From the IMG/VR virus record IMGVR_UViG_2695420597_000002: a stretch of DNA of 25,190 nt. The stretch is one strand, 5' to 3'. Shown here piece by piece: positions 3,001-6,000 of this stretch. Made by a program: the position numbers. The stretch comes from a virus. Lineage: Duplodnaviria; Heunggongvirae; Uroviricota; Caudoviricetes. Numbering within the stretch: the first letter of the stretch is position 1; each line of letters opens with the position of its first letter.

Positions 3001-6000
3001 CGTTAGCCAGGTCATACGCGGCCTTAACGGCTTTTGGTGTTGCCGCCAGTGACTCGGAAGTGCTGTTAGTCGCACTACTGAGCTGTACTATCCCCTTTTT
3101 CGTCGTGCTCGCATCCTCAAGCGCCACGGCGGATGCAATATCCTCTGCCCGTTTTGCCGCTGTCTCAGCGCGCGTTGCTGCAGATTCCGCCGTACTTTTG
3201 CTCTGAGCTGCTGCCGTCGCACTACCAGCAGCCTCTGTCGCCTTCGTGGATGCCGTCGTGGCGCTGCCCTTCGCTGCTGACGCCTGTCTGGTCGCCTCAT
3301 CTTTTGAAGCAGACGCCGATGATGCCGATGACGCCGCCGAACTGGCGGACGATGCGGCAGCCGTTTTTGAGGATTCTGCACGGGTTTCCGACGCTTTCGC
3401 GTTCGTTTCGGATGTCTTCGCTGCGGAAGCTGACCTCGCTGCTGCCGTGGCCTGCTCAGTGGCTTCGCCAGCCTTCGTTGTGGCTGTTGAAGCGGATGAT
3501 GCGGCGCTTTCTGCCGATTTTCCGGCGGCGGTGGCACTGGCTGAGGCCTGCCCGGCACTTGTTGACGCGGCGCTGGCAGACGACGCAGCCGCTGTTTTTG
3601 AGCCTGCCGCAGCTGAGGCACTCTGTCCCGCTGCCGTTTCAGAAGACCTGGCGTTCGTCTCGGACGTTTTGGCCGCCTTCGCAGAATTTGCAGCCGCCGT
3701 CGCCGAGGAAGCTGCGCTACTGGCGCTTGATGATGCGTTCGTTTCTGATGATTTTGCCGCCTCTTTTGAAGCCGACGCATCCCGGGCTGAGGTGGCAGCT
3801 TCTGACGCTTTCGTGGTCGCGGTGGATGCAGAAGTGGCTGCTGATTGTTGTGACGCTGCCGCATTCGTTTCTAACGTTTTCGCCGCACCGGCACTGGTAG
3901 CCGCCGCGCTTTTTGAGGACTCTGCAGCGGCAGCACTTTTTGAGGCTTCAGTGGCCTTTGTTGATGCCGTTCCTGCGCTGGAAGACGCTGACTGAGCCGA
4001 CGAAGCGGCCTGTCCGGCTGACGTGCTGGCTGCACGTGCTGAATCTGCAGCATCAGTCGCATGGGTTGCCGCCTCACGGGCTGATGTGCTGGCATCGCTG
4101 GCTGATTTCTTCGCGGCTGCCGTGTTCTGTGCCACCGCGGACGCGTTACGCGCCACCTCTTCCACCATCAGCTCAAAACGGCGCAGTGCCTCCGGACGGG
4201 CATCATCCTCCGTCATGGCACCGAGAAAATCATTCAGCGTACCGGGTCGGGAATCTTCATACACGGTGATGGTCCCGGCATGTGACGGCGGGAATCCTTC
4301 CACCAACAGAATAACGCTGTACTGACCGTACTCAACGTCCATGCTGTAACGCCCGGCTTCATCCGGATTTTCTGAGGCCAGCGTGTTCACCACCACCGTG
4401 GTGCTGTTACGTTTTGCTTTCAGCTGGATTGTGCAGTTCTGTACCGGTTTTCCTGTGCCGTCTTTCAGTACACCTGAAATCTTTACTGCCATATTCACCC
4501 CACAAAAAAGCCCGCCTGAACCGGCGGGCTGTCATAACACTGTGTTACCTGGCTAATCAGAATTTATAACCGACACCCACGATGAAACCGTCAGTGCGCC
4601 AGAGACGTGTTGCTGTGGCGACCGTCATCACTTCCGGTCAGCACATCGTGCGTTTTCCCCTTATTGTCAGTTACGCGGATATAATCCCCGGAAAAAGTCG
4701 ACACACGGCTGTAAGCCACACCCGCCATCGCATACGCGCTGAACCATTCATTCACGCGCACAGACGGCCCCGCCATCACGCTGAACCAGCGGTTACGCAC
4801 GGAATCTTCATGCCAGCGGGTATCGCTGTAACGGGTCAGCTGGCGATTCTTGTCTCCTGCATAGCTGAATGACGTCACCAGCCCCAGCGTATCCGTAAAC
4901 TCATAACGGTATTTCACGTTAATCCCGTTCAGATCATCACTGCCGGGAACGTTGGTCCGGGCATGAAGATACCCCGCGCTCAGCGTGGACTGATGTTCAG
5001 ACGCCCATGCAGGCGCACCGGATACGGCCAGACAGATGGCTGCGGACAAAATGGCTGCACAAACTTTACGCATAATTACCTCTCGCTTTTCTGCAATAAA
5101 AAAGGCGTCATTCCTGACGCCATTTATTGGGGTTATAAATATTTCAACGAATACTGATGCCGGAAGCCGCTTTTTTGGTCACAATCACCGTACAGTCGGT
5201 GATATTGCCTGCCCCCTGATTGCCTTTCTGGAAAATCTTAAACTCCAGAGTGACGCTACCACCACCACTAGGCATATCAATAACTGCACTGTAACTACCG
5301 GGAATGGCACCTTTAGTTTCTCTGGATGCGATTAATACGCCGTTTTTGCGAACTTCAAAACCATAACCCGTGTATCGCGTGCCTCCTGGGTTATTTCCGC
5401 TCCCCGGATCGTCATACGCTATACCGTTAAAAATAATGGGCGGAATAATAATCTGGCGGTCAAAGTTATGATCATCGCTTATGGTGACTGTAACCGTCCC
5501 GTTTGGTGTTTCCGTGTTACCCCACGTACCAGCCTGTTTCGGAAATGATTTGGATACAGCTTTAACGAAGTCACCTCTGACCTGAGTCGCCTCCAGCATG
5601 CCCTTAATCGTACAGTTTTCATTTACCGTGACATTGTTGAGCGTCCCGGCGTTCGCATTCACACTGCCACTGATATCCGCATTTTTAGCGGTCAGCTTTC
5701 CGTCCGGAGTCAGGGAAAATGCCGATGGATTTCCACCGCTGGTAATGGTGGGGGCCGTCAGGCGTTTCAGGAACACGTCGTTCATGAATATCTGATCGCC
5801 CTGACCAACAAACATCGGTTTTGTGTTGCCATTCGCAGGATTAACCATCGCAATCCTGTCCGCCGCCAGCAGCACCTGACTCTGCATGCCGTCAGGGGTG
5901 TTCTCAATACCGGCACCAATACCCGCGATATAAAGGCGTCCGTCCTGCATCTGCTGCAGCTTCACAGCCCACATGCTGTTCAGGTTATTATTTGTATCAA

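Follow-up and report, generated by a model that had tools for sequence, protein, structure and literature searches.

Knowledge of the receptor switch between phages lambda and 434 dates back to the 1970s. When the 434 J gene is put in lambda, the receptor changes from LamB to OmpC, which is 434's own receptor; lambda h434, like 434, thus uses OmpC and not LamB, with specificity determined by the C-terminus of J (PMC3509688; PMC11101478). Within the lambda J structure, the protein is described in terms of a hub, the FNIII-1/2 domains, an alpha-helical shaft, a beta-prism, and an Ig-like receptor-binding domain (RBD) (PMC11101478). An identity stretch at lambda aa 964 is where engineered gpJ chimeras are fused, and the OmpC-binding gpJ variants A8 and 1A2 tell OmpC alleles apart (PMC11338833). 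Receptor use can also be changed or broadened by one to a few J substitutions, as described for lambda and phi21 with respect to LamB, OmpC, and OmpF; phi21 was considered here as a natural OmpC-using comparator and then dropped, since it uses LamB natively and its OmpC use evolved (PMC11336670).

The stretch of DNA analysed in our study (the window, 25,190 nt in full) carries Nu1, A, W, B, C, D, E, FI, FII, Z, U, V, G, H, M, L, K, J, lom, stf, and tfa on the - strand in lambda order, as located by tblastn. With lambda proteins as queries, the order around J reads H-M-L-K-I-J-lom-stf-tfa, all on the - strand and again as in lambda, such that J is flanked by I and lom. The late-operon proteins from Nu1 to J are mostly 92-100% identical to those of lambda at the amino acid level. 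J itself is 1165 aa in length, as the earlier note on this DNA had read it, compared to 1132 aa for lambda J (P03749) and 1137 aa for 434 J. The six Pfam models that describe lambda J (FNIII-A_GpJ, Phage-tail_3, Ig_J, Ig_J_second, Phage_Tail_Tip, and Ig_GpJ_C) are all matched above their gathering thresholds and follow one another as expected, and the lambda J chains in the PDB (8iyk) are matched at E=0 (phmmer). By this domain series and by its position in the operon, the protein is assigned as a lambda-type tip attachment protein, i.e., the central tail fibre. A terminator-like hairpin with a T-run follows the gene, and 434 has an annotated terminator at the matching site after its own J (Table 1).

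Exactly this J protein is encoded by Shigella sonnei 53G (HE616528.1), and thousands of assemblies are indexed for it; moreover, over its C-terminal 360 aa, J shows 100% identity to a partial S. sonnei protein cluster. On the strength of the 53G and cluster matches, the window is assigned as a lambda-like prophage of S. sonnei with a complete lambda-type late operon. Both ends of the window lie outside this operon: one is of low GC content (36%), and the other, beyond Nu1/cos, contains small ORFs with DUF3950 (77 aa) and DUF1398 (141 aa) at a GC content of about 39%. Three antisense ORFs in the J-lom region lie opposite a strongly conserved coding frame and were taken as chance occurrences; none of the three has a Pfam match.

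Table 1. Features of the J locus and its surroundings (positions are those of the window)
Feature	Coordinates	Strand	Basis or remark
Gene J, central tail fibre / tip attachment protein	5144..8641	-	1165 aa + stop; ORF list, translation
J aa 1-805, lambda-like hub domains and two FNIII/Ig domains	6227..8641	-	97% aa identity to lambda J, 98% to 434 J
J aa 806-955, alternative allele of alpha-helical shaft and upper beta-prism ("long shaft")	5777..6226	-	nt bins, aa identity, AF2
28 extra residues relative to lambda and 434, J aa ~836-866 in shaft helix	6044..6136	-	28 gap columns in lambda and 434
J aa 956-1010, conserved lower beta-prism, junction between modules	5612..5776	-	91% identity to lambda, 87% to 434
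J aa 1011-1165, 434-type RBD (predicted OmpC binder)	5147..5611	-	148/155 identical to 434 J, 58/155 to lambda J
Terminator-like hairpin and T-run	5104..5121	-	directly past J stop; consensus scan
lom	4559..5073	-	ORF 4591..5073
stf	1409..4498	-	intact
tfa	828..1409	-	
H (tape measure)	11044..13520	-	
Run of 8 N	12473..12480		within H
Small ORFs beyond Nu1/cos	24260..24961	+	DUF3950, DUF1398
Low-GC end	1..1000		
Antisense ORFs	5036..5335; 5598..5795; 4963..5157	+	taken as chance

Segment identities against lambda and 434, together with nucleotide identity in 90-nt bins, place the divergence of J from its lambda counterpart in two separate modules, aa 806-955 and aa 1011-1165; between the two lies a conserved block with about 90% identity to every comparator. 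In the domain terms of the lambda structure, the first module is the shaft together with the upper prism, and the second is the RBD; the intervening aa 956-1010 includes the identity stretch at lambda aa 964. This arrangement redraws part of the picture given by the earlier note, which had J follow lambda closely for its N-terminal ~900 residues; close similarity already stops at aa 805. The region it had singled out as different, 5144-5900, corresponds to aa 914-1165; it does cover the RBD but misses much of aa 806-955, as divergence begins from nt ~6226, next to the motif GQPSDD (aa 804, nt ~6230) from which the note's own text had it start. Likewise, its description of the distal part as unlike lambda is accurate for both diverged modules but not for the conserved aa 956-1010. 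The two peptides by which it had delimited the region are present, [14 protein letters not shown] from aa 804 and [14 protein letters not shown] as the end of the protein. Its central observation stands because the C-terminal ~250 residues are far from near-identical to lambda J, with 54% identity over aa 914-1165 and 37% over the last 155 aa.

The second module is the one that bears on receptor choice. Ig_GpJ_C matches J aa 1029-1164, and the RBD aligns to that of 434 J at 95% identity without gaps, nucleotide identity reaching 96-99% over aa 1051-1165. Against lambda J, the same domain displays 37% identity with 11 gap positions, and it lacks what would mark a lambda-type (LamB-binding) RBD, namely a close resemblance to aa ~980-1132 of lambda J with the receptor-contact loops included. 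Because the domain is near-identical to that of 434 J, which switches lambda from LamB to OmpC, the receptor is predicted to be one other than LamB, and one that can be named as OmpC. We thus consider it probable, with good confidence, that the window encodes a lambda-like mosaic J in which a long shaft carries a 434-type tip directed to the porin OmpC rather than to LamB. The proposal of a non-LamB receptor in the earlier note is hence supported by homology.

Seven residues of the RBD differ from 434 J (given as window residue, position, 434 residue): S1032A, Q1036K, A1037V, N1047D, I1136V, Q1138H, and G1143R. Four of these cluster at aa 1032-1047, leaving only the last three, which are conservative-to-moderate changes, within aa 1051-1165. 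The J proteins of phi458 and cdtI share the window residues S1032, Q1036, A1037, and N1047, with that of cdtI also sharing Q1138 and G1143. Fine-scale mosaicism is apparent within the 434-type tip: across aa 1021-1050, nucleotide identity of the window is 100% to phi458 and 87% to 434, whereas across aa 1051-1140 it reaches 97-99% to 434 and only 89-92% to phi458 and cdtI.

Neither the allele nor the combination of modules is new; this J is common, already sequenced, and, in E. coli genomes, one of the most frequent forms of the protein. The full-length allele is present at about 96% nucleotide identity in ev099, Kati, phi458, PhiR34_1, Ayreon, cdtI, phiSTEC1575-Stx2k, and mEp332. The 434-type C-terminal region (757-nt query, aa 914-1165) is found at 90-96% nucleotide identity in at least 73 phage records, many of them Stx1a and Stx2c phages, and the 434-type RBD alone (468 nt) in 2092 of 5426 complete E. 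coli genomes; the long shaft is likewise common. Five combinations of shaft and tip could be read from representative homologues: (i) a long shaft with a 434-type tip (window, P0006, P0014), (ii) a second, more divergent long shaft with a 434-type tip (P0039, P0045), (iii) a short lambda-type shaft with a 434-type tip (434, P0068, P0081, P0075), (iv) a long shaft with an A8-like or other tip (P0087, P0001, P0063), and (v) a short shaft with the lambda tip (lambda). Judged from these sequences, shaft and tip alleles reassort freely. Several different tips are found on the shaft module of aa 806-955, which is thus not tied to one type of receptor-binding tip; the view of the earlier note that the distal third sets receptor choice is thus apt for the 434-type RBD but not for the shaft. 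Phage phi458, a siphovirus that arises by spontaneous induction, plaques on K-12 MC1061 (PMC9701743), and as its J has the same architecture, the long shaft with a 434-type tip works in virions. A literature search for published receptor, adsorption, or knockout results on long-shaft carriers (mEp332, the PhiR/ECOR13 series, and phi458) returned none.

The genes next to J were also compared with their counterparts. Relative to lom of phi458 and cdtI, that of the window has undergone an 83-nt deletion between two CTGGCG repeats, which shortens the product to 160 aa (vs 199 aa) and leaves its last 14 codons out of frame; the 160-aa product is also called in S. sonnei 53G and other assemblies. 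The stf product is 1029 aa in length, compared to 774 aa in Ur-lambda, with an N-terminus 88% identical to lambda stf, Phage_fiber_2 repeats, a Collar domain, and a C-terminus 70% identical to lambda orf314; the tfa product is 93% identical to lambda Tfa. Lambda Stf binds OmpC, and the J tip and Stf of the window phage might therefore have the same porin as their target. Upstream of J, H appears split into ORFs of 414 aa and 366 aa in different frames. A defective prophage was considered on this account and rejected, as the run of 8 N within the gene, which stands for about 93 nt, explains the break; in the source genomes, H is full length (853 aa).

Whether J still serves in adsorption can be asked in light of this neighbourhood. 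Were the prophage decaying or cryptic, the gene would no longer work in adsorption, and its C-terminal differences would represent inherited history without a present role. Such a state would be in keeping with a lom directly downstream of J whose truncation is fixed across S. sonnei 53G and other assemblies, and with a window that takes in the late region alone and not the immunity, replication, or lysis genes. We nonetheless regard it as unlikely, given that the genes from Nu1 to J, as well as stf and tfa, are all full-length ORFs (92-100% identity to lambda), that the apparent interruption of H is due to the N run in the record, and that lom is dispensable for plaque formation by lambda. 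Even in a cryptic prophage, the built-in target of the tip would be unchanged.

A tip that is 434-like in sequence might also be narrower or different in its range than that of 434, recognising another porin (e.g., OmpF) or only a few OmpC alleles such as those of the Shigella type, and not K-12 OmpC. The seven RBD substitutions relative to 434 could allow for this, considering that a few J mutations shift lambda and phi21 among LamB, OmpC, and OmpF (PMC11336670) and that the A8 and 1A2 gpJ proteins discriminate between OmpC variants (PMC11338833); the fine-scale mosaicism inside the 434-type RBD family points in the same direction. However, the high nucleotide identity to 434 across aa 1051-1165, with its three conservative-to-moderate changes, and the recurrence of several of the variant residues in phi458 and cdtI J argue for retention of the 434 target, as does the fact that K-12 is the recorded host of phi458, Ayreon, mEp332, and PhiR34_1, all of them carriers of this full-length allele. 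A shifted or restricted porin range is accordingly quite improbable in our estimation. Continued use of LamB despite the divergence, for which a shared Ig-like fold family and the trimeric porin nature of LamB, OmpC, and OmpF might speak, is highly implausible next to the low identity and indels relative to the lambda RBD and the near-identity to a tip that genetically switches lambda from LamB to OmpC.

The AF2 monomer model of the C-terminal 360 aa of J has a mean pLDDT of 55.8, such that only the RBD and the helices are usable. The RBD is modelled as a beta-sandwich for which means over 10-residue blocks of pLDDT lie mostly between 70 and 90, whereas the beta-prism is of low confidence, as expected when an intertwined trimer is modelled as a monomer. 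In a Foldseek search against the PDB, the central fibres of lambda and A8 came out as the best matches, the latter also in its complex with OmpC (9wcb). J is a recombinational mosaic of known allele modules: hub, long shaft, conserved prism junction, and 434-type RBD. By analogy with the solved complexes of lambda J with LamB and of A8 gpJ with OmpC, the bottom loops of the trimeric tip would enter the trimeric porin, and this binding would spread the three RBDs apart. The spreading would then travel up the prism and the shaft, leading the tail tip to open and the DNA to be ejected.

The shaft is the part of the molecule in which J departs from both lambda and 434. Over J aa 811-960, its nucleotide identity to these two phages is 28-78% in 90-nt bins, and every bin from aa 781 to aa 960 is 100% identical to phi458. 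At the protein level, identity to lambda and 434 is 43% over aa 811-955, with sub-segments of aa 806-955 being 57%, 6%, 35%, and 62% identical. Of the 33 residues by which J exceeds lambda J, 28 lie in the helical shaft and a net 5 in the RBD. These 28 residues amount to four heptads; helices are predicted at aa 811-889 in the AF2 monomer, and large hydrophobic residues recur every 3-4 residues across aa 840-866 and then at aa 873, 876, and 879, a spacing with which a coiled-coil reading of the shaft fits.

More speculatively, the extension (28 residues, four heptads, roughly 4 nm) could be a functional module in itself, and, separately, the seven tip differences might be adaptations to particular OmpC alleles such as those of Shigella; we hold this to be unlikely. 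As such a module, the longer shaft might extend the reach of the central fibre, e.g., by allowing the tip to reach porins under O-antigen or capsule, or might retune the signal passing from receptor binding to tail opening. A function of this kind would also explain the spread of the extension among J genes independent of tip type.

Taken as a whole, the window J is an instance of textbook J mosaicism and raises no new question. It does provide a clean example of how interchangeable cassettes for shaft and tip meet at a conserved segment of the prism, the junction now used to retarget lambda-based delivery particles. For the S. sonnei prophage, it also supplies an annotation, namely that of a 434-type J that is probably directed to OmpC rather than to LamB. 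Such tip assignments bear on the prediction of host range, superinfection, and phage-mediated transfer among Shigella and E. coli.

Among known systems, lambda J (P03749; PDB 8iyk, 8xcj/8xck), which is LamB-dependent, has the same domain order and gene neighbourhood as the window J and remains close to it over aa 1-805 (97%) and aa 956-1010 (91%), but has a shaft that is shorter by 28 residues and an RBD that is only 37% identical, with indels, and for which the receptor is LamB. The J protein of phage 434 (UMO75286.1; also found in lambda h434 hybrids) is 98% identical over aa 1-805 and 95% identical in the RBD, and it shares with the window J the C-terminal motif ...[15 protein letters not shown]; at 1137 aa, however, it has a short lambda-type shaft, in contrast to the long shaft of the window J with its 28 extra residues, and the two RBDs differ by seven substitutions. 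The same combination of long shaft and 434-type tip, likewise in a protein of 1165 aa, is found in J of the viable phages phi458, cdtI, ev099, Kati, Ayreon, PhiR34_1, and mEp332, at 95.5-96.5% nucleotide identity along the entire gene. The gpJ proteins of A8 (PDB 9wca; 9wcb with OmpC) and 1A2 have natural tips from E. coli prophages; these redirect lambda to OmpC and serve in engineered lambda particles. Tips of the A8-like type constitute another RBD allele, the natural tip of P0087 being 44% identical to the window RBD, yet they also sit on the window-type long shaft, with P0087 being 100% identical to the window over J aa 811-955.
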